64,000 nucleotides of DNA from Patescibacteria group bacterium (GCA_040753135.1 JBFMGR010000001.1:59252-123251); one strand, 5' to 3'; counted from the first letter of the stretch, positions 2,233-59,437 are shown. Numbers and translations are program-made. The notes: a model not told the origin generated them from the sequence alone.

Positions 2233-2307
2233 TGGTCGGGTCGGGGAGAATCGAACTCCCATCGCAGGACCCCCAGCCCTGCATACTAACCATTGTACTA
2301 CGACCCG
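2233..2307 (-). tRNA. tRNA-Pro (anticodon GGG), intact, with CCA encoded.
   Basis: A manual cloverleaf gives acceptor CGGGTCG/CGACCCG, D-stem GTAC/GTAT, anticodon loop CTGGGGG, T-arm GGGAG-TTCGATT-CTCCC, discriminator A and CCA. Confidence 0.8.
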
Positions 2308-2570
2308 ATTGATTTTAATTTTTTAAGCGCTTCTCGATATTGTTTATTAAATAATCGTTTTCCTTCTGTTGTTTTCAAAAACCGTTCCCTTCTTCTGGCG
2401 TCGTTTTCATTTTGATAAGCTTCGTATCCGATAAAAGAAATTGGCCTTCTGTGTTTTGTTGATTTAACTTTGCCGCGTTTGTGTTCTTCAATTCTTTCCC
2501 GCAACCGCTTTGTTAAACCAGTGTAAACCTGATTATTTTTTAAAAGAAGAAAATAAACATAAGTAAACAT
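2298..2570 (-). CDS. GIY-YIG nuclease family protein (UPF0213/YhbQ-like, ~91 aa). Its last codons overlap the 5' end of tRNA-Pro.
   Basis: The N-terminus MFTYVYFLLLKNNQVYTGLTKRLRERIEEH…YEAYQNENDARRRERFLK carries GIY…YIG/R/E hallmarks. The ATG at 2570 follows the hairpin region. Confidence 0.75.
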   Translation of the reverse strand: MFTYVYFLLLKNNQVYTGLTKRLRERIEEHKRGKVKSTKHRRPISFIGYEAYQNENDARRRERFLKTTEGKRLFNKQYREALKKLKSIGS

Positions 2571-2591
2571 AGATGATACTTTATAAGGAAT

Positions 2592-2687
2592 CGCCCCGTT
2601 AGGCAACGGGGCGCCCTGTCGCCTGACAGGGCGAACTCCCATCGCAGGACCCCCAGCCCTGCATACTAACCATTGTACTACGACCCG
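2592..2687 (-). pseudogene. Second tRNA-Pro 5' portion (acceptor through the 5' T-stem plus TTCG), then two tandem hairpins (ccctgtcaggcgacaggg and cgccccgttgcctaacggggcg) in place of the rest of the T-loop. A split or interrupted tRNA-Pro copy.
   Basis: 2636–2687 is identical to the 5' 52 nt of the intact tRNA-Pro; 2592–2631 are two perfect stem-loops. Confidence 0.6.
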
Positions 2688-13375: not shown

Positions 13376-13503
13376 TTTTATGGATCCCGTTAGAAATTCA
13401 ACCATGATTAAACGAATCAAATTTTTAACCAAAATAAAGTCAACTATTGTCTTTATTTTTTCGAATAATGAATTAACCTTCTTAAATTTCTAACAGGATG
13501 GAC
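13376..13503 (+). mobile_element. MITE-like element (~125 bp) with ~13-bp terminal inverted repeats (cc[c/t]gttagaaatt / aatttctaac[a/g]gg). A second copy lies at 41174–41301. It ends in the ATG of rplV.
   Basis: The two copies are ~75% identical over ~125 nt with conserved inverted termini. The downstream gene's start codon lies inside the 3' terminal repeat (ggATGg). Confidence 0.6.
13380..13493 (+). CDS. Conserved 37-aa small ORF inside the MITE (MDPVRNSTMIKRIKFLTKIKSTIVFIFSNNELTFLNF). Its stop lies 4 nt before the rplV ATG.
   Basis: Frame and length are preserved in the second copy, and many of the nucleotide differences are synonymous. Confidence 0.45.
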   Translation: MDPVRNSTMIKRIKFLTKIKSTIVFIFSNNELTFLNF

Positions 13504-28220: not shown

Positions 28221-28287
28221 ATTTGTCAAGAGTTCGCAATTTAACAATTAGGAATTAGAAATTGGAAATTAGGAATTATTTATTGGC

Positions 28288-30840: not shown

Positions 30841-31332
30841 TTTTAAATCCAAAATTCCAATAACCAAAATTTTTAGCTACGGGTTGATTCGCTTTTAGCA
30901 GACAATTTTCAGATAATTCTAAAAGCCCAAAATTTAAAAAATGTTTAAATGAAAACAGGGGCGCCATTGGCACCCCTGATGTTTTTTCGCCCGGGAGTGT
31001 AATTTCTGCCCCCGGGCATTAGACGCGTGGGCAACCCGAGACTATGTCTCGGGTTGCCCGATCAGTATATTTATTATAGCAAGAAAAAATACCGCTGTCA
31101 AACGCAGGAATAGTTCAATTTAGGATTTCTTAATTTATTGAAGTCTCACTTCAATAAATTGTTTTCCGCGTCTAAAGAAGTCGGGCTTCTAAAACTAGGT
31201 CTTTATGGAAACCAATATGTTTCTGAACTTATGCAGATTTTAAGATATCAATATCGCTGGTCTTTAAGAATATTTTAAGATTTGTGGATTTATTTAGAAA
31301 TTAGATATTAGGAATTAGATATTGCCAACGCT

Positions 31333-31944: not shown

Positions 31945-32089
31945 AAAAAATGAATTATGAATAATGAATAATGAATTATGGAATTAAGATAGATTTTAGA
32001 GCCAAAATCTAAAATCTACGTTTTATTGTTATGTCCTCCCGCCAATTTACTAATAATTGGTAAATCAACAGGGTTTTATTGGAAATTGT

Positions 32090-40218: not shown

Positions 40219-40267
40219 TTTCCAGATGGTGCCAATTTACTATTTGATGCAGATAAACAAAAATTCT

Positions 40268-40407
40268 AAATCCTAAATCCTAAATAAATTAAAATGACCA
40301 AAATTGAAAATGTAAAACAGTTTAGAATTTGGATATTGGGATTTTGGAATTGTTTAGGGCTTAGATATTAGAATTTAGAATTTATAGACAAGATTTGTAA
40401 ATTAGCA
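40268..40407 (+). repeat. ~135-nt intergenic repeat, copy A; ~88% identical to 48614–48746.
   Basis: Direct alignment of the two regions; both lie immediately upstream of a + strand gene. Confidence 0.6.
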
Positions 40408-40449
40408 TTATATTATTATCTGTAATCTGTAGATTAGCATCGTATTTTT

Positions 40450-40962
40450 ATGAAGGATTATTACAAAATTTTAGGCGTTTCTGAAACTGCCTCAATCGAA
40501 GAAATTAAAAAAGCTTACCGTAAATTAGCCCATCAATATCATCCGGACCGGGCAGACGGGAATGAAACTAAGTTTAAGGAGATTAATGAAGCCTATCAAA
40601 CGCTTTCTAACCAAGAGAAAAGGCGGCAGTATGATGCCAGGCGGAATTTCGGCGCTGGCGGATTTGATTTTGGCTTTGGCCCGTTTGGGTTTTCCGGCCA
40701 AAGCAGTTATGGTTGGCAAAGCTTAGACGATCTGCTTTCCGAGTTTTTCGGCGGCATGGCCGGAGCCGGGTTTTCTGGCCAGTATCAAGGCGGATTTGGT
40801 TCAAGAACTAAAACCGCTCCCAAACAGATTGTTCGGTTAAGCTACCAGGGGCCTAAAGGAGTGGTTTTGACTGTCGAGTTGGCCGGAGTTTCCGGTTTGG
40901 AGCCAAAACTTAAACAGGTAATTGACGAGTTTTCCCAAAAAATATTCAAGGAGGTAGGATAA
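40450..40962 (+). CDS. J-domain protein (DnaJ-like with J domain and G/F region, no zinc-finger/CTD).
   Basis: DYYKILGV…[13 protein letters not shown] with the HPD motif; Gly/Phe-rich linker. Confidence 0.65.
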
Positions 40963-40997
40963 GATGAATAAATCCTAATTTTCAATTTACAATTTCT

Positions 40998-41036
40998 CTG
41001 CCAGAGGCAGATCCGCCTTTGGCGGACAATTTCCAG
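40998..41036. repeat. ggcggatccgcc-family double-hairpin element (variant gcagatccgcctttggcggacaatttccag), copy 1 of 5.
   Basis: Shares a core with 45584, 46859, 48588 and 49468. Confidence 0.5.
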
Positions 41037-41173
41037 TGAATTTCAATAATTTAATCTCAAATCACAAACACTAAAATTCAGATAAATTTTAATGATTATA
41101 ATTCAAATTTCTTGAAGTCTGAAAATTTAAAAACTGGAGCTTGATTGAGAATTGATAATTGAAAATTAAAGTT

Positions 41174-41301
41174 TGCCATGGATCCCGTTAGAAATTCAAC
41201 GATAATTAAACGAATTAAGTTTTTGATTAAGGCAAAACCGACAACTATCTTCGTATTATTGAATAAAGAATTAACTTGCTTAAATTTCTAACGGGATGGA
41301 T
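41174..41301 (+). mobile_element. Second copy of the MITE-like element; it ends in the ATG of rmuC.
   Basis: Aligns to 13376–13503 with conserved terminal inverted repeats. Confidence 0.6.
41178..41291 (+). CDS. Small ORF, copy 2 (MDPVRNSTIIKRIKFLIKAKPTTIFVLLNKELTCLNF).
   Basis: Same 37-codon length and frame as 13380–13493; its stop lies 4 nt before the rmuC ATG. Confidence 0.45.
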   Translation: MDPVRNSTIIKRIKFLIKAKPTTIFVLLNKELTCLNF

Positions 41302-42336
41302 ATTATTTTAGTGATTGTAATTTTGGGGTTTGTGGTTTTGGCGTTTATTTTTGGCTTTGTCATTTATCTGCTTTTAAAAAAACAGCAAGACGACCAGATT
41401 CAAAATCAGTCAATCAATTCTTTAGGCGAGTCAATCTCCAAGATGCAGGTTCAGCTGATGGAGCATTTGGCCAATCAATTAAGCGCGGTTAGGGGCAGTT
41501 TGGATAATACTGTGGGCAAAAACATTCAGCGGTTTTCCGAAGAGTTTGTTGGCGTTAAAGAAGATTTAAAAAGAGTCGGCGAGATTTACCAAAGCGTTGA
41601 CAATCTTCAAAAAATCTTTAAATCGCCAAAGCTACGGGGCAACTGGGGCGAGGCATCTCTTGAGCATCTGCTTTCCCAGCACTATCCCAAAGAGCTTTAC
41701 GACCTTCAGCATATGTTTTCTTCAGGCGAACGGGCCGATGCGGCGTTTAAACTGCCCGATGGCAAGATAATTGCGATTGATGCCAAATTCCCTTTGGAAA
41801 ACTTTTCCAAACTTCAAGTGGTGGAAACTGATCTGGAGAAAGAAGCAATAGAAAAAACCTTTATCCAGGATGTTAAAGCCCGGATTGACGAGATTGGCCA
41901 AAAATACATTTTGCCCTCAGAGGGGACTTTGGATTACGCGATTATGTATGTGCCGGCTGAAGCGGTTTATTATGAGATCGTTAATCCGGCGACCAAAGCA
42001 AGCAAGGACGACTTGATTTCTTATGCTTGGTCTAAGAAAGTGATTATTGCTTCGCCAAATCTGTTTTACCTGACTTTAAAAACAGTTGAGCATTGGTTTC
42101 GTGATGTTCAGATTTCTAAACAAACCCAAGGTATTTTAAAGAGATTTGAGAGAATCAGAAAAGACGGCGAAAAATTAGCTGAAGATTTCCGGCTTTTGGG
42201 CAAGCACCTGGGCAATGCCCAGTCAGCTTTTAACAACACTGAAAAACGGCTTGATTTAATGGTTGGCAAAGTTGACCAATTAACCTCAATTAAAGTTAAA
42301 GGCGAGCTAGAAGAACCGGAAGGGGAAAGTGAATGA
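41296..42336 (+). CDS. rmuC: DNA recombination protein RmuC.
   Basis: N-terminal transmembrane segment, long coiled coil, C-terminal nuclease-like region (…AIDAKFPLENF…). Confidence 0.6.
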   Translation: MDIILVIVILGFVVLAFIFGFVIYLLLKKQQDDQIQNQSINSLGESISKMQVQLMEHLANQLSAVRGSLDNTVGKNIQRFSEEFVGVKEDLKRVGEIYQSVDNLQKIFKSPKLRGNWGEASLEHLLSQHYPKELYDLQHMFSSGERADAAFKLPDGKIIAIDAKFPLENFSKLQVVETDLEKEAIEKTFIQDVKARIDEIGQKYILPSEGTLDYAIMYVPAEAVYYEIVNPATKASKDDLISYAWSKKVIIASPNLFYLTLKTVEHWFRDVQISKQTQGILKRFERIRKDGEKLAEDFRLLGKHLGNAQSAFNNTEKRLDLMVGKVDQLTSIKVKGELEEPEGESE

Positions 42337-42545
42337 TGAATCAGGAATGATGAATTAATCTCCTTAATATTTTATCAGCGAATAGCGGATTTATACGAAT
42401 AAATGAATGAAATAAATCAAAAGTCAAAATGACAGATTAAAATGTAAAAAAATCTCAAAATTTGAAAAAATTTAAACCTCTGAAAATTGAAATATTGAAA
42501 ATTCATTGAAAATTGAAAATTAGAAATTAGAAATTCTTTAGGTTT

Positions 42546-43283
42546 ATGCTAGACACCACCCATGTTTTAACTGGTTTGGTTATTGGCAAGTATCTGAAAA
42601 ATCCTATCTTGGCTTTTGGCGCTGGAGTTTTGTCCCATTTTGTTTTAGACGCCATTCCTCATTGGGATGGAACAAAGACGCTTAATGCGTCTTTGTTCCG
42701 AAGCGAAGCGAAGGTGGGAGAAAAGACTTTTTCAAAGTCTTTTCTCCGCAGTGAGGCGAGCGAAGAAACAAAGAGAGCTGGCGTAGCTTTGTTGCGAGCC
42801 GAACAAGGTGGAACAAAGACGCTTAATGCGTCTTTGTTCCGAAGCGAAGCGGAGGTGGAAGGAAAGACGCTTAATGCGTCTTTGTTCCGAGCGGAGCGAG
42901 ATGGAGAAGGGGGGCTAAATGATGCTGAATGCCGAATAAGATTCACCCGAGAGGGCAAGATTATTTTAGGCCTAGATATCTTAATCAGTTTGATTATTTT
43001 TTTATTTCTATCAATCAAAGGCCCGCTCTGGCCCGATTTTCCTAACCCTAATTCGTTATTCATCATTCTTCATTCTAATTTGTCCTGGGTTGCCGGAGTT
43101 TTTGGCGCTTTATTGCCGGACATTTTATTATTGGCTTATATTTTTTATCCTTCAGCCAAATTAAAAAAGCTTTCTGTTTTTGAATTCCATAAAAATATCC
43201 AAAGAAAAATTCCAATGATTCCGGGGTTGGTCTTTCAGTTAATCTGGATTAGTTTTTGCTTGTATTTTTTTGTTTTATCTTGA
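42546..43283 (+). CDS. YdjM/DUF457-like membrane-bound metal-dependent hydrolase, carrying an in-frame ~75-aa hairpin-repeat insertion.
   Basis: N-terminal HVLTGLVIGKYL…SHFVLDAIPHWD and C-terminal GALLPDILLLAY motifs; the middle is encoded by the tandem hairpin array. Confidence 0.5.
   Translation: MLDTTHVLTGLVIGKYLKNPILAFGAGVLSHFVLDAIPHWDGTKTLNASLFRSEAKVGEKTFSKSFLRSEASEETKRAGVALLRAEQGGTKTLNASLFRSEAEVEGKTLNASLFRAERDGEGGLNDAECRIRFTREGKIILGLDILISLIIFLFLSIKGPLWPDFPNPNSLFIILHSNLSWVAGVFGALLPDILLLAYIFYPSAKLKKLSVFEFHKNIQRKIPMIPGLVFQLIWISFCLYFFVLS
42669..42890. repeat. Array of five ~45-bp units, each holding a perfect hairpin (for example ggaacaaagacgc-ttaat-gcgtctttgttcc), embedded in-frame in the ydjM-like gene.
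   Basis: Units 1, 4 and 5 are near-identical. Units 2 and 3 differ in sequence but stay palindromic, i.e. the changes are compensatory. Confidence 0.7.
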
Positions 43284-43313
43284 CAAAAGGGGAAGATAGA
43301 TTATAATGACTTA

Positions 43314-43340
43314 TTAGCAATCTATATTGTAGATTGCTAA
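43314..43340 (+). promoter_or_regulatory. CIRCE operator TTAGCAATC-N9-GATTGCTAA upstream of groES.
   Basis: Perfect 9-bp inverted repeat with a 9-nt spacer, ~30 nt upstream of the groES start. Confidence 0.7.
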
Positions 43341-43367
43341 TTAAATAATTAACTGATTAAAAGAGTT

Positions 43368-43673
43368 ATGAAAATAAAACCATTATCAGATTATATTCTG
43401 ATTGAACCATTAAAAGAAGAAAAAACCACTTCTTCCGGGATTATCATTCCGGAGACCGCTTCAGAAGAGCGACCCCAAAAAGGTAAAGTTATTGCCGTTG
43501 GTCCGGGCAAATTAAATGATAAAGGCGAGCGGGTAGCGATGGAGATTAAGGTTAACCAAGAAGTGCTTTTCAAAAAGTACGGGCCAGACGAAATTAAGGT
43601 CAGAGACGAGTCCGGCAAAGAGGTTGAGTATTTAATTGCCAGAGAAGAAGACATTCTCGCCATTATAGAATAA
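43368..43673 (+). CDS. groES: Co-chaperonin GroES.
   Basis: MKIKPLSDYILIEP…; 101 aa. Confidence 0.9.
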   Translation: MKIKPLSDYILIEPLKEEKTTSSGIIIPETASEERPQKGKVIAVGPGKLNDKGERVAMEIKVNQEVLFKKYGPDEIKVRDESGKEVEYLIAREEDILAIIE

Positions 43674-43785
43674 TGGCAAAATTCCCAACTCCCAAATTTC
43701 AATTTCCAATTCTCATTGATTTATCAACCTTATATGTTTGGGAATTGTAAAATTGTAAATTTATTGAAAATTAAAAATTGTAAAA

Positions 43786-45441
43786 TTGAAAATTATGAGT
43801 AAGCAAATTTTATACAAAGATAAAGCTAGGGAGGCGTTAAAAAAAGGTGTTGATAAAGTCGCCAATGTGGTTAAAGTGACTTTAGGCCCAAAAGGCAGAA
43901 ATGTAATTTTAGACAAAAGCTATGGTTCGCCAATAATTACCAAAGACGGCGTTACCGTGGCAAAAGAGATTTCTTTGGAAAATAAACTGGAAAATATTGC
44001 GGCTGAATTGGTTAAGGAAGCAGCCCAGAAAACCGCTGATATTGCTGGAGATGGCACCACGACTGCGGCGCTTTTGGTTCAGGCAATTGTCAATGAAGGA
44101 TTTTCTCAAGTTGCTTCCGGATCTAACCCGGTGCTTTTGAAGAAAGGAATCGACAAAGCTTTGGCAAAAGTTTTAGAGATGTTGTCAGAGCAAAGCGTAA
44201 AAATAGAGGATAAGAAAAAAGTTGAAGAAGTTGCCTCAATCTCGGCGAATAACGATCCGGAAATCGGCAAGCTGATTGCCGAGGTGTTTAATGAGATTGG
44301 CAAAGAAGGCGTGGTTACGGTTGAGGAATCCCAAACCTTAGGTTTGTCTCGGGAAACCGTTGAGGGTCTTCAGTTTGACCGGGGCTATGTTTCTCCTTAT
44401 ATGATTACTGACGCAGAAAGAATGGAAGCGGTTTTGGAAGATCCCTATATTCTGATTACTGACCAGAAAATCTCGGCTATGAACGAGCTTTTGCCGGTTC
44501 TGGAAAAGATTATCCAATCGGGCAAAAAGAACATTGTTTTGATTGCTGAGGACATAGAGGGTGAAGCTTTGGCGACTCTGGTGGTCAATAAGCTTCGCGG
44601 CACTTTTAATGCTTTGGCAATTAAAGCGCCCGGGTTTGGCGACAGAAGAAAAGAGTTGCTGGAAGATATTGCCGCGATTACTGGGGGCAAGCTGATTTCT
44701 CCAGATCTTGGCTTAAAACTGGAAGGCGCAGATTTAAATATGCTTGGCCAGGCCCATCGAGTGGTGGCTAATAAAGACAACGCCACGATAGTTGGCGGCA
44801 AAGGCGAAAAAAACAAAATTGAAGAAAGAATCAAACAGATTCGTTCGCTTTTAGAAAAGTCAGAATCAGAGTTTGACAAAGAAAAATACGAAGAAAGGCT
44901 GGCCAAGCTCTCCGGCGGCGTGGCAGTGATTAAAGTCGGCGCCGTGACCGAAACCGAAATGAAAGAGAAAAAATTCAGGATTGAAGACGCGATTCATGCG
45001 ACTCGGGCAGCCCTGGAAAGTGGGATTGTTTCTGGCGGCGGCGTGGCTTTGTTTGATATCAGCCGCGAGTTGAGAAAGAACAAAGATAAGCTTTTTCCGG
45101 TTTTTGGCGACGAGAATCGGGGCGTGGAGATTGTTCTTCGAGCTTTGGAATATCCGATTAGAACGATTGCCGAGAATTCGGGCAAATCAGCAGAAGATGT
45201 GTTCAATACTTTGGTTAAAGAAGATAGAACCGGTTATGGCTTTAATGCTTTGACTGGCGAGTTTGTTGATATGATTGAAGCCGGGATTCTTGACCCAACC
45301 AAAGTGGTTAAATCAGCTATTTCCAATGCTGCTTCTGTGGCTGGGTTAATCTTAATCTCTGACGCGATCGTGGCAGACAAACCAGAAGAAAAAGACAAGC
45401 CAGAGATGCCCGGTGGCTATCCCGGCGGAGAAGATTATTAA
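43786..45441 (+). CDS. groEL: Chaperonin GroEL.
   Basis: AGDGTTTA motif; C-terminal GGM-like tail; 551 aa. Confidence 0.95.
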   Translation: MKIMSKQILYKDKAREALKKGVDKVANVVKVTLGPKGRNVILDKSYGSPIITKDGVTVAKEISLENKLENIAAELVKEAAQKTADIAGDGTTTAALLVQAIVNEGFSQVASGSNPVLLKKGIDKALAKVLEMLSEQSVKIEDKKKVEEVASISANNDPEIGKLIAEVFNEIGKEGVVTVEESQTLGLSRETVEGLQFDRGYVSPYMITDAERMEAVLEDPYILITDQKISAMNELLPVLEKIIQSGKKNIVLIAEDIEGEALATLVVNKLRGTFNALAIKAPGFGDRRKELLEDIAAITGGKLISPDLGLKLEGADLNMLGQAHRVVANKDNATIVGGKGEKNKIEERIKQIRSLLEKSESEFDKEKYEERLAKLSGGVAVIKVGAVTETEMKEKKFRIEDAIHATRAALESGIVSGGGVALFDISRELRKNKDKLFPVFGDENRGVEIVLRALEYPIRTIAENSGKSAEDVFNTLVKEDRTGYGFNALTGEFVDMIEAGILDPTKVVKSAISNAASVAGLILISDAIVADKPEEKDKPEMPGGYPGGEDY

Positions 45442-45480
45442 AAAGAGGGCAAAGCTTATAGATTTAAGATTTAAGAAAAC

Positions 45481-45520
45481 AATATTCCAACATTCTTGAG
45501 AATGTTGGAATATTGTTTTT
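45481..45520 (+). terminator. Copy 3 of the palindrome aatattccaacattcttgagaatgttggaatatt followed by ttttt; the groEL terminator.
   Basis: Perfect 15-bp stem plus T-run, 40 nt after the groEL stop. Confidence 0.6.
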
Positions 45521-45583
45521 AAGAGATGATCTTGTAAATTTGCTTCTTAAGTAATAAAATGGGCTTTATGCCAGAGTAGTTTC

Positions 45584-45617
45584 TGCCAGGGGCGGATCCG
45601 CCCTTGGCGGGCAGTGT
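45584..45617. repeat. ggcggatccgcc double-hairpin element, copy 2.
   Basis: ctgccaggggcggatccgcccttggcgggcagtg. Confidence 0.5.
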
Positions 45618-45644
45618 ATTTCTTGAAACAAAACATTATCTTTT

Positions 45645-45717
45645 GCCGAGATAGCTCAGTTGGCAGAGCACGCCCTTGGTAAGGGCGAGGTCCCGGGTTC
45701 AAGTCCCGGTCTCGGCT
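45645..45717 (+). tRNA. tRNA-Thr (anticodon GGT).
   Basis: Acceptor GCCGAGA/TCTCGGC, anticodon loop TTGGTAA, T-arm CCGGG-TTCAAGT-CCCGG. Confidence 0.8.
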
Positions 45718-45870
45718 CAAAATTTGCTAATCGCTAATAGCAAATGGCGAATAGCAAATAATTTTCCTGCCGAAGGTCTCTCCGAGAGAAATAAAATAAC
45801 TGTTGAAATATTGCTAATATTTAATAAATAGTTTAGAATCTGGAATTAATATTTAGAGTTTATAGAATTT

Positions 45871-46047
45871 ATGGAACCCCGCTCTTATTTTGCGGGAAGC
45901 AGAGTGTCGGTTCGCTGGGTTAAAAAGGTTTGTGGCTATCCGCCAGCCGCGAGCCGAGAAAATTAAACAAAATTGGTCATAAGTAATTAATTTTTATTGA
46001 GCGTTAACGGACGGCAAAATAAGAGCGGGGTGCTCATTTTTGTAGCC
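45871..46047 (+). ncRNA. Candidate structured RNA (~180 nt) closed by a 17-bp long-range helix (ccccgctcttattttgc … gcaaaataagagcgggg), upstream of rpmG. Identity unknown.
   Basis: Long-range perfect complementarity is read directly. The region is non-coding and sits between tRNA-Thr and rpmG. Confidence 0.3.
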
Positions 46048-46070
46048 AATCGCCGCGCTCTTGGACAAAA

Positions 46071-46259
46071 ATGGCAAAAAAAGGCGCAAAAAAATCAAAA
46101 TATTCAGAAAACTTGATTAAGTTCCAGTGCCAGGAATGTAAGATGTTTAATTATTATTCCCGGAAAAACAAAAAACTGGTAGAAAGGAAGCTGGAATACA
46201 AAAAGTTTTGTAAGCACTGCCGCAAGCACACTTTGCACAAAGAAACCAAGAAAAAGTAG
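46071..46259 (+). CDS. rpmG: 50S ribosomal protein L33.
   Basis: 62 aa; C…CxxC…CxxC; KFCKHCRKHTLHKE. Confidence 0.75.
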   Translation: MAKKGAKKSKYSENLIKFQCQECKMFNYYSRKNKKLVERKLEYKKFCKHCRKHTLHKETKKK

Positions 46260-46303
46260 GCCACTTGGCGGAATTTTCAATTGTTCTGACTTCACCAGAT
46301 TTT

Positions 46304-46336
46304 GTCGTAGCTACGCTAGATCTCGCATAGCGAGAC
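46304..46336. repeat. Inverted copy of the 33-nt element at 3927–3959.
   Basis: Reverse complement matches with 2 mismatches. Confidence 0.6.
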
Positions 46337-46452
46337 ATAGCGAGACAATTTTCAATTTTCAATGGAATTGGCTTGTTTTAAGTTTTGTTTTATAATACTG
46401 TTTAGAATTAAAAGTTAGTAATTACTAATTAGAAATTAGGAATTATTCCCTT

Positions 46453-46523
46453 GGGGGCTTGGTGTAGTGGTAACACAACGGTCTCCAAAACCGTTGACGA
46501 GGGTTCGATTCCTTCAGCCCCTG
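46453..46523 (+). tRNA. tRNA-Trp (anticodon CCA).
   Basis: Acceptor GGGGGCT/AGCCCCT, anticodon loop CTCCAAA, T-arm GAGGG-TTCGATT-CCTTC. Confidence 0.75.
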
Positions 46524-46528
46524 CTTTA

Positions 46529-47269
46529 ATGTTTAATAACTTCTCTACCAACCAAGAATTAGTTGGTCATTTGAAATCTATCGGGGTTTTGAAAACTCCT
46601 CTGATTATCTCTGCGTTTGAAAAGATTGACCGGAAAGATTTTGTCCCCAAACAGTTTGAAAATGAAGCTTATGGAGATTATCCTTTGTCAATTGGTCAAG
46701 GTCAGACGATTTCCCAACCCTACACCGTGGCATTTATGCTGGAGTTATTACAACCTCAGCCAGGAGAAAAAATCTTAGATATTGGTGCTGGGTCAGGATG
46801 GACTACCGCTCTTTTGGCTTATATAATAAGCCAACAAGGCAGCACCAATTACCAATTACTCCGCCGGGGGCGGATCCGCGCTTGGCGGACAATTTCCAAA
46901 GAAATCCCAATATCCAATAATCAAAATGAATTAGGCAAGGTTTATGCGATAGAAGTTATTCCAGAATTATGTGAATTTGGAGCGCAAAATTGCAACAAGT
47001 ATAAATTTGTCTCTGATGGGGTAGCTAAGTTTTTTTGCCAGGACGGGAATCTGGGTTTAAAAGATTACGCTCCTTTTGACAAAATTTTAGCCAGCGCCGC
47101 TTTAAGCAAAAAAGAGCTGCCCCAGGCTTGGAAAGACCAGCTGAAGGTTAGGGGCAGGATTGTCTGCCCAATAATGAATAGCATTTTTGTTTTTGATAAA
47201 ATAAAACAAGATAAATGGCAAGAAGAAGAGCATTACGGCTTTAATTTTGTACCGCTGGTGAAGAGGTAA
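46529..47269 (+). CDS. pcm: Protein-L-isoaspartate O-methyltransferase, with an in-frame insertion derived from the ggcggatccgcc repeat.
   Basis: GQTISQPYTVAFMLELL…ILDIGAGSGW methyltransferase motif I. The insertion LRRGRIRAWRTISKE is encoded by 46859–46900. Confidence 0.7.
   Translation: MFNNFSTNQELVGHLKSIGVLKTPLIISAFEKIDRKDFVPKQFENEAYGDYPLSIGQGQTISQPYTVAFMLELLQPQPGEKILDIGAGSGWTTALLAYIISQQGSTNYQLLRRGRIRAWRTISKEIPISNNQNELGKVYAIEVIPELCEFGAQNCNKYKFVSDGVAKFFCQDGNLGLKDYAPFDKILASAALSKKELPQAWKDQLKVRGRIVCPIMNSIFVFDKIKQDKWQEEEHYGFNFVPLVKR
46859..46900. repeat. ggcggatccgcc double-hairpin element, copy 3, lying inside pcm.
   Basis: ctccgccgggggcggatccgcgcttggcggacaatttccaaag. Confidence 0.55.
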
Positions 47270-47371
47270 GAAGTTAAATGGTTTCGCGACCAGTATCGGT
47301 TTAGTCAGACGTTAACATAAAACCATACTGGCAGGGGAAACCAAAACGATTAAGATTAACATTTTAGTCAG

Positions 47372-48475
47372 ATGGAATTATCGTTAACCAAAGAAAGATT
47401 GCAGAGTTTAAGACAGCGTTTAAATAAATGGCAGGAGTGGTTGGATATTGAGAATAAAAAAGCGAGAATTATTGAAATTGAAACCCAATTTTTAGACCCG
47501 AATTTTTGGCAAGACAGAGAAAAAGCCGAAATTTTTTCAAAAGAGTTAGGCAAGCTTAAAACTTTGCTTAAAGAGCTTGAGGATAAACAGAAAGAACTGG
47601 ATGAGCTGGAGATGTTTTTATTTATTGCTGATAAGGAAAATAAAGAAGCCGAGGCTTTGGCAGAGATTCAGCCTCCTTTGGAAAAATTAGAAAAAGAAAT
47701 GGATAAAGAGGAGCTGAAAATGTTTTTGTCCGGCAGATACGATGCCGGTAAAGCCAGCTTAGCAGTTTATGCCGGCGCTGGCGGAGAAGACGCTCAGGAT
47801 TGGGCAAGAATGCTTTGGGAGATGTACCAAAACTACGCTCGGGCGCGAGGTTGGGAATTTATTATTTTAGATGAACACAAAAACGAGCAAGGCGGGATAA
47901 AAAGCGCGGTGGCCGAGATAGTTGGCGATTATGCTTATGGTTATTTAAAAGGTGAAAATGGAGTCCACCGTTTAGTTAGAATTTCGCCGTTTGACGCTGA
48001 TAATCAGAGGCATACTTCTTTTGCTTTAGTTGAGGTCTTGCCGGAGATAGAAGAAAAAGAATATCAGTTGAAAGAAGACGATTTAGAAATAGATTTATTC
48101 CGCTCTTCCGGGCCAGGCGGCCAGAATGTCAATAAAGTAGAAACTGCAGTTAGGATTAAGCATAAACCAACCGGCATTATTGTTTCTTGCCAAAGCGAGC
48201 GAAGCCAGGACAGGAATAAGCAAAAAGCCTTGGGCCTTTTGCGGGCCAAGCTTTATCAATTAGCTGAAACTGAAGCCCGCACAGAAAAAGCCGAGATTAA
48301 AGGCGAGAAAAAGCAGATTGCTTGGGCGAATCAGATCCGGTCTTATGTGCTTCATCCTTATCAGTTGGTTAAAGACCATCGGACCGAAGCAGAAACAACT
48401 CAAGTGGAAAAAGTTTTAGCCGGCGACCTGGATAGATTCATTGAAGCCGAACTAAAAATGAAGTATAATAAATAA
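47372..48475 (+). CDS. prfB: Peptide chain release factor 2; a single uninterrupted ORF with no programmed frameshift.
   Basis: SPF and GGQ motifs; 367 aa. Confidence 0.9.
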
Positions 48476-48587
48476 ATGATGCTAATCGGCGAATTTAATG
48501 CTAATCAACGAATATATTAATAAAAGAATTAAGTACTATGATGCTAATATGTGAATGAACACAAATTCTGAATCCTAAGCGCTTAAG

Positions 48588-48620
48588 CCGGGGGCTGTTC
48601 GCCTCTGGCGGAAAATCCTA
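48588..48620. repeat. Degenerate copy 4 of the ggcgg…ggcgg element (gccgggggctgttcgcctctggcggaaaatcc).
   Basis: Partial match to the family consensus. Confidence 0.35.
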
Positions 48621-48746
48621 AATAAATTCAAATGACCAAAATTAAAAATCCAGAACTGTTTAGAATTTAGGCATTGGGATTTTGGAATTATTTAGGGCTT
48701 AGATATTAGAATTTAGAATTTATAGATAAGATTCGTAGATTAGTGT
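48614..48746 (+). repeat. ~135-nt intergenic repeat, copy B, upstream of ftsE.
   Basis: ~88% identity to 40268–40407. Confidence 0.6.
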
Positions 48747-48753
48747 CGCGTTT

Positions 48754-49443
48754 ATGTCGATTATTTCTTTTCAAAACGTTTCCAAAATTTACAACTCCCA
48801 TTCAATTGCGCTGGATAATGTCAGCTTTAGCATTGAAAAAGGCGAGTTTGTTTCTTTGGCGGGCAAATCAGGCGCAGGCAAATCCACTGCGCTTAAGCTT
48901 TTAATTGCCGAAGAAAGCCCGTCCAAAGGAAAGGTTTCATTCAACGAGCAAGATGTTCAAAAACTTTCTTCTAAAGAGCTACCGTTGTTAAGAAGGAGGA
49001 TCGGAATGATTTTTCAGGACTATCGGCTTTTGGCACACAAGACAGCTTATGAGAACATTGCTTATGCGATGGAGGTTGCCGGGATGAGCGATGAAGATAT
49101 CAACCGGGATGTTGAACAAGTGCTGGAGCTGGTGGCTTTGCCCGACCGGGCAAATAACTTTCCTAAAGCTTTGTCCGGCGGCGAAAAACAGCGAATTGCA
49201 ATTGCTCGGGCTTTGGTCCAGCGGCCAGAGTTGATTATTGCTGACGAACCAACCGGGAATTTAGATCCGATCAACACCTGGGAAATTATCAAGCTTTTGG
49301 TTAAAATTAACGAACTGGGAACAACCGTGATTTTAGCCACTCACGATAAAGAAATCGTTGACTCCTTGGAAAAAAGGGTGATTATTTTAGACCGCGGCAA
49401 AATTATTAAAGACGAGCAAAAAGGAAAGTATATTATTACCTAA
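48754..49443 (+). CDS. ftsE: Cell-division ABC transporter ATP-binding protein FtsE.
   Basis: Walker A GKSGAGKST, signature LSGGEKQR, Walker B LIIADEPT. Confidence 0.85.
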   Translation: MSIISFQNVSKIYNSHSIALDNVSFSIEKGEFVSLAGKSGAGKSTALKLLIAEESPSKGKVSFNEQDVQKLSSKELPLLRRRIGMIFQDYRLLAHKTAYENIAYAMEVAGMSDEDINRDVEQVLELVALPDRANNFPKALSGGEKQRIAIARALVQRPELIIADEPTGNLDPINTWEIIKLLVKINELGTTVILATHDKEIVDSLEKRVIILDRGKIIKDEQKGKYIIT

Positions 49444-49467
49444 TTTTCAATTTTCATTGAATTTTCC

Positions 49468-49505
49468 CGTCAGGGGCGGATCCGCCTCTGGCGGGCAATG
49501 ATTCA
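49468..49505. repeat. ggcggatccgcc double-hairpin element, copy 5.
   Basis: ccgtcaggggcggatccgcctctggcgggcaatgattc. Confidence 0.5.
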
Positions 49506-49572
49506 ATCTTTGAAAATTAGGGGATTGATAGCTGATTGGGAATTGTGAATTGGTAATTAGCAATTTTAAACC

Positions 49573-54186: not shown

Positions 54187-54228
54187 GTGAATTATGAATT
54201 ATGAATAGTGAATCTAAAATAATGAATT

Positions 54229-55857
54229 ATGGATAATGGGACAGACAGAATTTTAATTGGCGAGGCCGAGTTCCGGAATAAGCGGACGCCGTTTGGAATT
54301 AAGATTGACGACTTAAGGCGGCATATTTATGCGGTTGGCCTGACCGGCGTGGGCAAGACGACTTTTTTGGAAACAATGGCGCTTTACCATATTCAGCACA
54401 ATAAGGGCGTGGGGATTATTGACCCACACGGAGAGTTTTCTGATCGGCTGATGGATTATATTCCCAAAGAAAGAATTGATGATGTGGTTTATATCAATCC
54501 ATCAGACACCAATTATCCACTGGCTTTTAATGTAATGGAGAGCGTTGATTTTGAGCAGAGGCACTTAGTTGCTTCGAGTTTGTTGTCAGTGTTTAAAAAA
54601 ATCTGGCCTGATGTTTGGTCAGCCCGGATGGAGTATATCTTAAACAATACTTTTTTAGCGCTTTTAGAGTATCCGGACTCAACCCTTTTGGGCATCAGCC
54701 GGATGCTGGCAGATAAGGATTATCGGAAGATGATTGTTTCCAGGCTGATGGATCCGGTGGTCAAAGCCTTCTGGACCCAGGAATTTGCCCGCTACCATGA
54801 CCGGTTTCAAGTTGAAGCAATTGCGCCTTTACAGAATAAAGTTGGCCAATTCACTGCTAATCCTTTAGTGAGAAATATTATCGGCCAGAAAAAGACTAAG
54901 CTTAATTTAAGAGAGATAATTGATACCAGAAAAATTTTGATTGTCCGTCTGCCGGTAGGTTTGGTCGGCGAATCCAATGCCTCGCTTTTAGGCGGTTTGT
55001 TGGTGACCAAACTTCAGCAAGCCGCGATGTCCAGGATTGATATTCCGGAGAACCAGCGGGAAGATTTTTGTTTAGTAATTGACGAGTTTCAGAACTTTGC
55101 CACCGAATCATTTATTAAGATTTTGTCAGAGGCAAGAAAATACCATCTGAATTTGGTGATTGGCCATCAGTATTTAGACCAGATTCCTGAAGAAATCTTG
55201 GCCGCAATTTTGGGCAATGTCGGCACTTATGTTGCTTTTCGGATCGGCCCGGTTGACGCGGAAAAATTAGAACCGCAGTTTTTGCCCCAGATCAACGTTC
55301 ACGAGTTAGTTAATCTGCCGAACCATTATTTTTACATCAAGATGATGATTGACGGCGTGACTTCGCCGCCGTTTTTAGGCACAACTTTACTGCCGCCGCC
55401 TTTGCCGGTTCAAAGTTATAAAGAAGAGATTATCAAGCTCTCTCAATTAAAATACTCTACCCAGAAAGGCTTTATTGAGCAGGAGATTCAAAAATGGCTT
55501 GAGCCGGTTGAGCCGGGAAAAGAAGAAAAATTAGAGCAAGAGCCGGAAGTTTGGGAGCCGGTAATGCTCCATGAAGCAGTTTGTTCCTCCTGCGGCAAAG
55601 ATATTCGCTTGCCTTTTGAGCCGGATCCGAATCGGCCGGTTTATTGCAAAAAATGCCTGAAAAAAGTTAAAAAGCCAGAAGCAGAAAAAAAGCCAGCTAA
55701 AGCCAAAGCGAAAAAGCCGGTTTCGGCAAAGCCAAAAACAGAACCAAAAGCAGAAGAAAAAAAGTCCGGTTTAGGCGAGATGCTGAAAAAAATTATCAGT
55801 TCGCAGAAACCAGAAAAAGAAACAGATTCTCTTGAATCCCAAGAACAAGAATCTTAA
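54229..55857 (+). CDS. VirD4/TraD/TrwB-like P-loop ATPase (type IV secretion system DNA-binding-domain-like) with a C-terminal CxxC…CxxC zinc ribbon and a Lys-rich tail. It has no N-terminal transmembrane segment.
   Basis: Walker A GLTGVGKTT, Walker B LVIDEFQNF, HQYLDQI; C-terminus CSSCGK…RPVYCKKC followed by a KPAKAKAKKP tail. Confidence 0.55.
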   Translation: MDNGTDRILIGEAEFRNKRTPFGIKIDDLRRHIYAVGLTGVGKTTFLETMALYHIQHNKGVGIIDPHGEFSDRLMDYIPKERIDDVVYINPSDTNYPLAFNVMESVDFEQRHLVASSLLSVFKKIWPDVWSARMEYILNNTFLALLEYPDSTLLGISRMLADKDYRKMIVSRLMDPVVKAFWTQEFARYHDRFQVEAIAPLQNKVGQFTANPLVRNIIGQKKTKLNLREIIDTRKILIVRLPVGLVGESNASLLGGLLVTKLQQAAMSRIDIPENQREDFCLVIDEFQNFATESFIKILSEARKYHLNLVIGHQYLDQIPEEILAAILGNVGTYVAFRIGPVDAEKLEPQFLPQINVHELVNLPNHYFYIKMMIDGVTSPPFLGTTLLPPPLPVQSYKEEIIKLSQLKYSTQKGFIEQEIQKWLEPVEPGKEEKLEQEPEVWEPVMLHEAVCSSCGKDIRLPFEPDPNRPVYCKKCLKKVKKPEAEKKPAKAKAKKPVSAKPKTEPKAEEKKSGLGEMLKKIISSQKPEKETDSLESQEQES

Positions 55858-57538: not shown

Positions 57539-59437
57539 ATGATTATTGCTCAAGAGTTAAGGCAAAAATATTTAGAATTTTTTAAGCAAAAAGGGCATCA
57601 GATTATTCCGAGCGCTTCTTTGATTCCGGAAAATGACCCGACCGTGCTTTTCACTACCGCGGGGATGCATCCTTTAGTGCCTTATTTATTAGGTGAAAAA
57701 CATCCGGCCGGTAAACGTTTGGTTGATGTTCAGAAATGTCTCCGGACCGTTGATATTGAAGAAGTTGGCGACCAAGTCCATCAGACTTTTTTTGAGATGC
57801 TGGGCAACTGGTCTTTGGGGGATTATTTTAAAAAAGAGGCAATTGAGTGGAGTTATGAGTTTTTGATTTCTAAAGATTGGCTGGGACTTGATAAAAATAG
57901 ATTAGCGGTTTCAGTATTTGAAGGCGACCAGGACGCGCCGTTTGACCAAGAAGCTTATAGTGTTTGGCTGAATTTGGGCATTCCTGAAAAAAGAATCGCC
58001 AAACTGCCGAAAAAAAACAACTGGTGGGGACCGGCCGGTCAAACCGGACCTTGCGGCCCAGATACCGAGATGTTTTATTGGGTTAGCAATGAACCAGCGC
58101 CGGAAAAGTTTGACCCCGATGATTCTCGCTGGGTTGAGGTCTGGAACGATGTGTTTATGGAGTATAATAAAAAAGTCAAAAGTCAAAAGTCAAAAGTCAA
58201 AAATGAAATTCGAGATTCAAAAATAGAAAAATCTAAAAATTTAAATAAGGAAGCATACGAATACGAATCTTTAAAACAAAAAAATATTGATACTGGCATG
58301 GGTTTAGAAAGGGTTTTGGCGGTTTTGAACGGACTTGATGATAATTACAGAACCGAGCTGTTTTGGCCAATTATTGAAAAAGTTGAGGAGCTGTCGGGCA
58401 AAAAATACGGCGACTCTGAAGAGATAACCAAAGCAATGCGGATTATTGCTGACCATCTTAAGGCGGCAATTTTTATCTTAGCTGAACGAATTGAACCGTC
58501 AAATGTTGAGCGAGGTTATGTTTTAAGGAGACTAATCAGGCGGGCGATTCGTTACGCCAAGCAATTAGAGATTAATCAAGCTTTTTGTTTTAAGTTGGTT
58601 GAGCCGGCAATTAAAATTTATCAAGATGTTTACCCGGAGCTTTTCCAAAATAAAGATTTTATTGAAGAGCAGTTAGTCAGAGAAGAAGAGAGGTTTAGCA
58701 CAACTTTAACTAAGGGTTTAAATGTTTTAAAGAAAGAGGTCCAAAAAATGAAGCAGACAGGTAAGAAAAGCTTGTCCGGAGATATTGGCAAGATAGCTTT
58801 TAATTTCTTCCAGAATTATGGTTTTCCGCCCGAATTATTCTTAGAAGAGATCGCCAAAGAAATTCCCCATAGCAAAGAGGGTGTTTTGGCGTCTTTTAAT
58901 CAGGCTTTTAAAAAACACCAAGAATTATCCCGCCAGAAAGCGGAGCAAAAATTCAAGGGCGGTTTGGCTGACCACTCTGAAATCAGCAAAAAATACCATA
59001 CTGCCACCCATTTATTGCAAGCGGCCTTGCGCCAAATTTTAAGCGACCAGATTTATCAAAAAGGCTCAAACATCACTGCCGAGCGTTTGCGATTTGATTT
59101 TAATTATTCTGAACCGATCAGTTCGGAACAATTAAAAGAGATAGAAGGCTTGGTTAATCAGAAAATTCAAGAACATCTGCCGGTTCATTTTGAAGAAATG
59201 GCAGTTGATAAAGCGAAGAAAATCGGCGCTTTGGGCGTGTTTGGGAGCAAGTATAGCGAGAAAGTTAAAGTTTATTTTATTGGTCCTTCGATGAACTCAG
59301 GGCAAATTCCTTTTTCTATAGAGATCTGCGGCGGCCCGCATGTAGAAAATACAAAAGAGATTGGTAAAATTAAAATTGCCAAACTGGAATCAATCGGCCA
59401 AGGAATAAAAAGAATTCGAGCAGTGGTTGAAGTTTAA
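57539..59437 (+). CDS. alaS: Alanine--tRNA ligase, short form (~632 aa; catalytic, tRNA-binding and editing-core domains). It carries an in-frame low-complexity insertion at 58170–58290.
   Basis: IPSASLIP…DPTVLFTTAGM…; editing-domain HTATHLL…CGGPHV. Confidence 0.8.
   Translation: MIIAQELRQKYLEFFKQKGHQIIPSASLIPENDPTVLFTTAGMHPLVPYLLGEKHPAGKRLVDVQKCLRTVDIEEVGDQVHQTFFEMLGNWSLGDYFKKEAIEWSYEFLISKDWLGLDKNRLAVSVFEGDQDAPFDQEAYSVWLNLGIPEKRIAKLPKKNNWWGPAGQTGPCGPDTEMFYWVSNEPAPEKFDPDDSRWVEVWNDVFMEYNKKVKSQKSKVKNEIRDSKIEKSKNLNKEAYEYESLKQKNIDTGMGLERVLAVLNGLDDNYRTELFWPIIEKVEELSGKKYGDSEEITKAMRIIADHLKAAIFILAERIEPSNVERGYVLRRLIRRAIRYAKQLEINQAFCFKLVEPAIKIYQDVYPELFQNKDFIEEQLVREEERFSTTLTKGLNVLKKEVQKMKQTGKKSLSGDIGKIAFNFFQNYGFPPELFLEEIAKEIPHSKEGVLASFNQAFKKHQELSRQKAEQKFKGGLADHSEISKKYHTATHLLQAALRQILSDQIYQKGSNITAERLRFDFNYSEPISSEQLKEIEGLVNQKIQEHLPVHFEEMAVDKAKKIGALGVFGSKYSEKVKVYFIGPSMNSGQIPFSIEICGGPHVENTKEIGKIKIAKLESIGQGIKRIRAVVEV

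Follow-up and report, generated by a model that had tools for sequence, protein, structure and literature searches.

A 30-nt GC-rich palindromic repeat of Patescibacteria and other phyla, probably a mobile element tolerated in coding sequence

In the tagged super-families of repetitive extragenic palindromic (REP) sequences, one end bears a GTAG or CGTC motif that stays unpaired (PMC3733652), and REP as well as their inverted doublets, REPIN, are probably non-autonomous repeats that RAYT Y1 transposases mobilise in trans (PMC3733652, PMC3479197). A 64,000-nucleotide stretch of DNA from a Patescibacteria group bacterium (GCA_040753135.1, JBFMGR010000001.1:59252-123251; hereafter the window, with positions counted from its first letter) contains a tiny GC-rich palindromic repeat of 30 bp in several copies. 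The repeat is probably a selfish, non-autonomous mobile element akin to REP/REPIN that genes can accommodate within their coding sequence. As with REP/REPIN, this is a short GC-rich hairpin repeat (20-40 bp) of palindromic sequence, built as a head-to-head doublet of units able to fold as one longer hairpin and dispersed between co-directional genes, REP and REPIN being themselves occasionally intragenic. It differs from REP in the absence of a GTAG/CGTC tag from the profile of 69 oriented elements, in lying inside open frames of at least 200 codons in 73 of 122 cases where REP are mostly extragenic, and in the occurrence of one sequence in many phyla where REP families are usually lineage-specific. 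Unlike REP/REPIN it is an exact 30-nt unit with a coding-frame bias, and a RAYT (REP-associated tyrosine transposase) gene, typically flanked by REP, was found neither in the 64-kb window nor beside the elements in 120 loci.

A sequence-only reading of the window had likened the repeat to a MITE (miniature inverted-repeat transposable element) or a REP-type mobile sequence. The mobile part of that claim is supported by presence and absence at orthologous and paralogous sites and by precise insertion, but neither label fits. MITEs measure roughly 50-500 bp and derive from a parent insertion sequence (IS), whereas this element is exactly 30 bp, too short for the class, and no longer relative bearing an open reading frame (ORF) was seen; 90 of 100 elements have flanks without a direct repeat, that is without target-site duplication, and removal of the element restores the empty site exactly. 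The REP label fails on the missing tag. Palindrome-associated transposable elements (PATEs) derived from IS200/IS605 share hairpins at both ends, the lack of duplication and a short specific target (PMC7290912, PMC10055086, PMC3597680), and T-T-N 5' of the present element is conserved at 67-93%; PATEs, however, are hundreds of bases long with guide and cleavage sequences outside the hairpins, whereas the 30-nt element consists of two abutting hairpins only. No TnpA (HUH Y1) was found in the 64-kb window or the element loci.

Rickettsia palindromic elements (RPE) were reportedly described by Ogata et al. in 2000 as 'selfish DNA in protein-coding genes', and they are mentioned in later work (PMC1950309). 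Like RPE, the 30-nt element is a palindromic repeat that has entered unrelated housekeeping genes of a reduced genome without breaking their frame, adds a translated segment at the protein surface and is present also between genes. RPE are, however, ~100-150 bp, restricted to Rickettsia and unrelated in sequence, whereas the element is 30 bp, occurs in many phyla and gives the same kind of peptide from both strands; the likeness is a functional resemblance only and the element is not an RPE member. Small GC-rich hairpins, single or double, in AT-rich compact genomes are also found in mitochondria (yeast GC clusters, chytrid double-hairpin elements and sponge repetitive hairpin-forming elements), where they are mobile, mostly intergenic and occasionally within rRNA or protein genes (PMC2800124, PMC4478555), but these are organellar, unrelated in sequence and have no documented frame-biased insertion into many enzymes. 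Palindromic amphipathic repeat coding elements (PARCELs) and other coding palindromes (PMC2996958, PMC6649704) are likewise dyad-symmetric DNA coding for similar peptides with a horizontally patchy distribution, but PARCELs are 75-nt units in tandem arrays within surface proteins of unknown function, and nematomorph coding palindromes are long, gene-specific inverted repeats rather than dispersed 30-nt insertions. Full-text literature searches gave no description of the sequence, of its peptide or of a comparable element in Patescibacteria; the papers in which the 12-mer core occurs are all unrelated to the element, the core most likely being part of cloning oligonucleotides.

Structure and distribution of the element

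Reading of the sequence and alignment of the copies defined the unit as exactly 30 nt in four blocks, TCCGCC-NNN-GGCGGA-TCCGCC-NNN-GGCGGA. These form two abutting 15-nt hairpin units, each with a 6-bp stem and a 3-nt loop and each a dyad by itself (TCCGCC N3 GGCGGA), and the 30-mer as a whole is a near-perfect palindrome; with the commonest loops the GC-rich consensus becomes TCCGCC-nGA-GGCGGA-TCCGCC-TTn-GGCGGA. The sequence-only reading had described a ~35-nt double hairpin with two mutually exclusive hairpins. The repeat itself is real, but its first block had been missed and the folding scheme was incomplete, the four blocks being able to form either two 6-bp hairpins or a single 12-13-bp hairpin, with covariation for both. 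All five copies then proposed were recovered by a core search and a covariance model; four are intact (40997, 45582, 46860 and 49466), one is decayed (48584), and a sixth copy, also decayed, lies at 30873. With up to two mismatches the core GGCGGATCCGCC matched the window five times against 1.54 expected, a number reached in 0 of 100 shuffles, and the block pattern CCGCC-YYT-GGCGG was enriched (17 vs 3). The covariance model gave E values of 1e-7 to 1e-10 for the intact copies (40997-41026, 45582-45611, 46860-46889 and 49466-49495), 2.4e-3 for the degenerate copy (48584-48612) and 1.2e-3 for the decayed one (30873-30902), but the sequence of the last is a member of the model's training set.

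Plus-strand folding energies lay between -21 and -26 kcal/mol, with z from -3.4 to -5.4, and a structure-only scan of ~1 Mb returned 118 double hairpins against 0 in shuffled sequence. Sub-families with covarying stems were observed (TCCCCC/GGGGGA, TCCGGC/GCCGGA and TCGGCC/GGCCGA), and the stem sequence, not structure alone, is conserved across phyla. Most elements are of one polarity (loops nGA and TTn), so that G-T pairs are possible on one strand where the other has A-C. In all four intact window copies the G-T strand is the sense strand, and the + RNA folds 4-8 kcal/mol better than the minus strand. Elsewhere, of 37 coding cases in frame 0, 27 have the G-T strand as the antisense strand, with peptides of the K/E...S rather than the R/G...F type, an excess that plausibly reflects protein-level selection; the same holds for 8 of the 12 copies that lie between co-directional genes. 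A general tie to the transcribed strand is thus lacking, and the orientation seen in the window does not extend to other genomes as a transcription-direction rule. An apparent covariation of the loops (NAA with TCT, NGA with TTT) was rejected as a pairing signal, being produced by one polarity class seen on two strands and by the orientation of the search pattern; a single 15-nt unit was rejected as the basic mobile unit, most apparent solos being halves of decayed doublets.

Two kinds of variant were observed. At six loci (L020, L044, L067, L076, L100 and L111) the second hairpin is normal but the loop of the first is enlarged to 10-23 nt (TCCGCCAC...GGCGGA); such copies either form a sub-family related to the element or arose by a secondary insertion that struck loop 1. 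At L117 (6185-6214 and 7178-7207), L110 and L069 the 30-mer is enclosed by additional complementary arms, as in CCCCCTTT ... AAGGGGG, and so forms part of a longer repeat, which suggests larger composite elements around the core.

A scan of GTDB representatives (one genome per species) for GGCGGATCCGCNYYTGGCGG located the 30-mer at at least 120 loci with unrelated flanks, so the repeat is abundant beyond the window. Around 110 loci among the matches listed carry all four blocks, block 1 (TCCGCC) being present although it was not part of the search, and the few GC-rich matches listed without block 1 (in Solimonas, Archangium, Pseudonocardia and similar) look like chance. Hosts among the matches listed are mostly Patescibacteria of many classes, with further hosts in Omnitrophota, Planctomycetota, Ignavibacteriota, Verrucomicrobiota/Kiritimatiellia/Lentisphaeria, Elusimicrobiota, Bacteroidota, Margulisiibacteriota, Cloacimonadota, Auribacterota, Firestonebacteria and Desulfotomaculaceae. 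The spread thus covers Patescibacteria and at least ten other phyla, mostly uncultivated, with an almost invariant stem sequence, and some copies lie on single contigs of 0.8-1.6 Mb. Only 2 matches were found in 2.9 million viral contigs, so a phage vector is unlikely, and a BLAST search with a 36-mer against plasmid and phage collections gave no match. Rfam returned nothing but tRNAs at the gathering threshold, and only hairpin noise in addition at E up to 5. This conservation of sequence across phyla, together with the strong coding-frame bias described below, is the most notable property of the element, and neither was visible from the window alone.

Insertion sites and copies within genes

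Insertion is precise, of 30 nt, at TTN|NAA (a T-rich triplet followed by an A-rich triplet). The flank consensus is T 0.67, T 0.93, T 0.72, element, A 0.62, A 0.78, A 0.55, with T at position -2 in 93% and A at position +2 in 78%, and the position profile of the 69 oriented elements accordingly ends T-T-T | TCCGCC ... GGCGGA | A-A-A. Within the window two paralogous spacers, upstream of ftsE (48560-48760) and upstream of an ORF with a DnaJ domain (40250-40420), are 90% identical in a pairwise alignment apart from 36 extra bases holding copy 4, which had correctly been called degenerate and is a 29-nt decayed copy. The empty paralogous site (40261..40285, + strand) is an (AAATCCT)n heptamer array of period 7 in which the junction 40274|40275 corresponds to the insertion point of copy 4. 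In a syntenic Parcubacteria locus (L126) with the order groES-groEL-tRNA-pcm-RF-ftsE-ftsX, the groEL-tRNA-Thr spacer is without copy 2 and the ftsE-ftsX spacer without copy 5. Elements in this genome often lie at the boundaries of intergenic heptamer repeats; a 7-bp target duplication, hinted at by such flanks, was rejected because empty sites already hold an equal number of heptamers.

The intergenic regions of the window are full of period-7 tandem repeats, ~40 of 111 tandem-repeat rows having this period (for example 28246-28278, 31950-31986, 42481-42535, 46402-46445, 54188-54238 and 58171-58202). Every spacer has its own heptamer, pyrimidine-rich arrays of the CAATTTC type tending to come after stop codons and purine-rich arrays of the GAAATTA type before start codons, and heptamer arrays are landing sites for the 30-nt element.

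Copy 3 (46860..46889, + strand; TCCGCC GGG GGCGGA TCCGCG CTT GGCGGA) lies inside pcm, encoding protein-L-isoaspartate O-methyltransferase (46529..47269, + strand; Pfam PF01135, E 5e-48, in two stretches), the product of which is identical to an NCBI protein from a metagenome-assembled genome of a Patescibacteria group bacterium, encoded on a 131-kb contig of which the window covers 64 kb. The ORF across copy 3 begins within tRNA-Trp, the real pcm start being 46529. The copy is translated in-frame, as had been noticed from the sequence, giving RRGRIRAWR from the rarer, basic frame. The 14-20 extra codons proposed at the same time proved too few: alignment to the solved PCMT 4o29 breaks at residues 104/135, so that the whole insertion covers ~30 codons (residues 105-134; 46841..46930, + strand), of which only 10 belong to the element, accompanied by translated heptamer repeats of the CAATTAC/CAATTTC type. 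It is placed between a LAYIIS segment, which follows the conserved GAGSG motif (the S-adenosylmethionine-binding motif of this methyltransferase fold), and a conserved GKVYAIE segment.

Among 34 aligned pcm orthologues the insert is variable, and basal forms (205-210 residues) do not contain it; orthologues from unrelated lineages likewise proved to be without the segment. Many Patescibacteria have a variable low-complexity insert (ISNFQFPISKQIPN...), at the DNA level a translated CAATTTC heptamer array, with a GC-rich segment in some only. In one orthologue (L124) the heptamer array stands alone with no element, whereas another (L123) has an array of the L124 type plus two 30-nt elements with the stem TCCCCC/GGGGGA exactly at heptamer boundaries; without these two elements the L123 sequence equals that of L124 base for base. 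The pcm genes of L125 and L126 contain decayed 30-nt elements at other heptamer boundaries with compensatory stem changes (TCCGGC/GCCGGA). These orthologue states indicate that the heptamer repeat invaded first and the element later, independently in several lineages.

The elements within open frames (~60% of the total) occupy unrelated housekeeping proteins, including aminoacyl-tRNA synthetases, Mur ligases, RpoB/C, PGK and CTP synthase. Frame 0, reading S-A-x-G-G-S-A-x-G-G, is used by 58 of the 73 coding copies, or 79% against 35% expected from the phase distribution of available TTN|NAA sites (p ~3e-14), a bias that results from selection on the translated peptide and shows that the segment is translated and under selection. 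The element amounts to 10 codons, and with the commonest loops all its frames are free of stop codons; where the loop is TGA, one frame is interrupted by a stop, and this variant is read from the opposite strand. The peptide, a flexible loop, is encoded in one frame on either strand. Comparison with solved homologues placed an exact 10-residue gap at SAKGGSASGG in AspRS and an 11-residue gap in a GH57 enzyme. In Mfd-like helicases of Giovannonibacteria (72-80% identical) three different insertion sites were found (KEKF|SAIGGSASSG|KK, PKN|SAKGGSASGG|KN and VNF|SAKGGPASG|WKN), two of exactly 10 residues and one aligned as an 8-9-residue gap; each is limited to one or two lineages, and insertion has therefore occurred repeatedly and independently.

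Mobility and competing explanations

The element is dispersed and insertion-polymorphic and is therefore mobile, and its near-invariant stem across phyla argues for sequence-specific recognition by a putative trans-acting enzyme together with horizontal spread. Its description as a selfish mobile palindromic element is held with considerable confidence, and the window copies probably serve no function of their own, apart from the stable hairpins that they incidentally form in mRNA. An enzyme of the HUH/Y1 type that recognises hairpins in single-stranded DNA and so mobilises the element (IS200/IS605 TnpA- or RAYT-like 'peel and paste') is a possible but rather doubtful mechanism; it would suit the paired hairpins, the precise excision and insertion, the lack of duplication and the short specific target. 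Somewhat better placed, though still tentative, is the proposal of an undescribed class of ultra-small (30 bp) transposable element spreading horizontally across phyla in groundwater and sediment communities. Here a dedicated enzyme would recognise the two 6-bp hairpins and cut exactly at their feet, and the sequence would have been shaped for harmless entry into essential genes (10 codons, few stops and the same Ser/Ala/Gly linker on either strand); by speculative extension, the period-7 tandem repeats might be preferred landing pads or be linked to the activity of the element. The size of 30 nt, the cross-phylum identity, the strand-symmetric peptide and the association with heptamer arrays are its unusual features.

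Several observations weigh against a mobile element of this kind. Pfam annotation of 20 ORFs in the 64-kb window, among them a minus-strand block at 31.3-35.9 kb, gave RecR, DnaB, CysS, CorA and similar proteins, with no transposase or RAYT-like gene, and all-against-all clustering of the ORFs of 126 loci and the window gave no family in more than 7 loci, the one reaching that number being an ABC ATPase. The element ends at the hairpin feet, whereas IS200/IS605 ends normally have guide and cleavage sequences outside the hairpins. Flank conservation is roughly symmetric, which suits a dimeric double-strand enzyme equally well as a single-strand one, and sequences are near-identical across phyla although REP families are normally lineage-specific. 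The window copies all differ from one another, and so give no sign of recent activity here. Covariation supports both the fold with two hairpins (96.5% paired) and the single long hairpin (89.1%), a comparison that is partly biased, ten divergent rows having been chosen by hairpin pairing; where no such bias applies, two hairpins are the better fit for copy 1 and L116, and pairing of the two ends for copy 5 and L073.

The repeat could instead be a functional RNA element, acting as a transcript hairpin that protects the mRNA upstream of it from 3' exonucleases, as a processing site or weak terminator, or as a switch between two folds that regulates neighbouring genes. Every window copy occupies a 3' or intercistronic position and shares the sense strand with co-oriented genes, the plus-strand folds owe the additional stability given above to G-U pairs, pairing is kept in decayed copies, and mRNA stabilisation is known for REPs (PMC3733652). 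Nevertheless such a role is unlikely: elsewhere most copies sit in coding sequences of unrelated genes, with the G-T strand mostly antisense in the frame-0 coding and co-directional intergenic cases; the hairpin is without a U-tract, only copy 2 being terminator-like and such sites in the region not exceeding chance; no Rfam family matched; and conservation extends across phyla to the primary sequence, for which a role of the RNA through structure alone gives no need. The suggestion from the sequence-only reading of a regulatory, uptake or recombination signal similarly received no support, copies lying in unrelated coding genes across phyla with a polarity independent of transcription direction in other genomes. 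That the repeat is retained as a duplex-DNA site to which a protein dimer or tetramer binds (for instance a Xer/dif-like or integron-like recombinase, or a partition, nucleoid or restriction-related protein) is more improbable still. Two tandem 15-bp palindromic half-sites within a near-perfect 30-mer palindrome, a stem sequence conserved across phyla beyond its structure, and five same-orientation copies between successive genes within 9 kb, like cassette boundaries, are what such a site would offer; yet copies take arbitrary positions in housekeeping genes that are empty at the same positions in close relatives, the flanking conserved syntenic block of housekeeping genes exists in L126 without the elements, and neither the window annotation nor the clustering of locus ORFs placed a recombinase nearby. 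The sub-families, moreover, alter their stems by compensatory changes, which indicates recognition of a hairpin rather than of a duplex.

There is very little probability that a peptide module, a Gly/Ser/Ala linker (SAxGGSAxGG) selected at the protein level and exchanged between genes, is the primary entity and the DNA palindrome its by-product. The strong S-A-x-G-G frame bias, the variation of the Ser codon third position (TCN) in the K...S orientation and the match of insertions to gaps in solved homologues would accord with it, but all other synonymous positions are invariant, no copies were seen with the same peptide and scrambled codons, and the complementarity of the hairpins persists when the sequence changes. 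Many copies are intergenic or in other frames, including every window copy, and gain of the same loop at unrelated sites of unrelated enzymes has no functional logic. Chance, or an artefact of assembly or library construction from a palindromic linker or adapter, is effectively refuted. The sequence does contain a BamHI site and resembles a synthetic GGS linker, and its core has the literature occurrences noted above; against this stand the shuffling result for double hairpins, the presence of the repeat in assemblies from many laboratories and technologies, the long single contigs among them included, and the decayed copies, compensatory changes, sub-families and frame selection.

If confirmed, the palindromic element would be smaller than any other mobile element known to keep its sequence across phyla, and would illustrate the persistence of selfish DNA in the very compact genomes of Patescibacteria by coding-neutrality instead of gene avoidance. 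It would explain recurrent 10-residue SAxGGSAxGG insertions that would otherwise confuse alignments, phylogenies and structure predictions for uncultivated bacteria, and the 30-mer would serve as a simple marker for gene flow between Patescibacteria and co-resident phyla. It also hints at a hairpin-specific DNA enzyme capable of precise cutting and joining without duplications, of relevance to transposition mechanics and possibly as a tool, and the natural permissive sites would provide, at no cost, a map of where many essential enzymes accept an inserted loop.

Copies and other features in the window

Five of the six window copies are intergenic, and the genes around the copies are all on the + strand (the DnaJ-domain ORF, rmuC, groES, groEL, tRNA-Thr, rpmG, tRNA-Trp, pcm, the release-factor gene, ftsE and ftsX). 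Copy 1 (TCTGCC AGA GGCAGA TCCGCC TTT GGCGGA; 40997..41026, + strand) lies between the DnaJ-domain ORF (40450..40962) and rmuC (41296..42336), also on the + strand, with CAATTTC heptamers on its flanks; it has a covariance model E of 2.5e-10, a plus-strand RNA fold of -21 kcal/mol (z -5.4) and a compensatory C-G to T-A change in hairpin 1. Copy 2 (TCTGCC AGG GGCGGA TCCGCC CTT GGCGGG; 45582..45611, + strand; E 6.7e-8, fold -24.8 kcal/mol) is situated between the groEL terminator hairpin (45478-45516) and tRNA-Thr (45645-45718). The segment holding copy 4 is 36 nt long (AAGCGCT + TAAGCC GGG GGCTGT TCGCC TCT GGCGGA; 48577..48612, + strand) and lies between the release-factor gene and ftsE; its element part (48584-48612) has a 1-nt deletion and, in hairpin 1, a compensatory C-G to A-T change. 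Copy 5 (CCCGTC AGG GGCGGA TCCGCC TCT GGCGGG; 49466..49495, + strand; E 1.2e-7, fold -25.8 kcal/mol) is found in the ftsE-ftsX spacer, where it forms the tip of an extended hairpin ~85 nt long (49439-49521, fold z -6.2). This imperfect hairpin is built by the flanking heptamer-like sequences, and the entire spacer is therefore palindromic beyond the GC core. The sixth copy (TTAGCT ACG GGTTGA TTCGCT TTT AGCAGA; 30873..30902, + strand), identified by repeat family and sequence, is located towards the 3' end of rplU, with a terminator-like hairpin downstream of it (30955-30990), and its + strand pairing is kept via G-T pairs and A-T replacements. Intrinsic termination by the element was rejected, there being no T-run after the hairpin (tails CAATTTCC, CAGTGTAT and CAATGATT) and only copy 2 passing a lax scan; the real terminator-like hairpins of the region lie elsewhere, at 45478-45516 and 30955-30990.

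The first of these hairpins belongs to an AT-rich family of perfect hairpins (ATATTCCAACATTCTTGAGAATGTTGGAATATT; 45478-45516, 1706-1770 and 2023-2087) distinct from the GC-rich element, and as it follows groEL and is succeeded by a T-run it is likely a real intrinsic terminator. A second in-frame palindromic insert family was observed at 42671-42910, within a hydrophobic and possibly membrane-associated ORF (42546..43283) with no Pfam match. It comprises about five 48-nt units, each a hairpin (e.g. GGAACAAAGACGCTTAATGCGTCTTTGTTCC) together with CGAAGCGAAGCGAAGG, read through as TKTLNASLFRSEAKV-like peptide repeats. Upstream of rpmG (L33; 46071..46259) a possible structured RNA spans 45860-46035, in which a long-range helix CCCCGCTCTTATTTTGC ... 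GCAAAATAAGAGCGGGG encloses ~130 nt; it has no Rfam match. On the minus strand at 2233-2696, a 114-aa GIY-YIG nuclease ORF (2298..2642) is bracketed by 65-nt, 98%-identical duplicates of part of tRNA-Pro(GGG) (2252-2316 and 2632-2696), which has the look of an insertion of the homing-endonuclease type in which a piece of the tRNA gene was duplicated. A 123-nt direct repeat of 80% identity (13380-13502 and 41178-41300) lies just upstream of an ORF starting at 13498 and of rmuC (41296), and may be a shared leader or promoter module.

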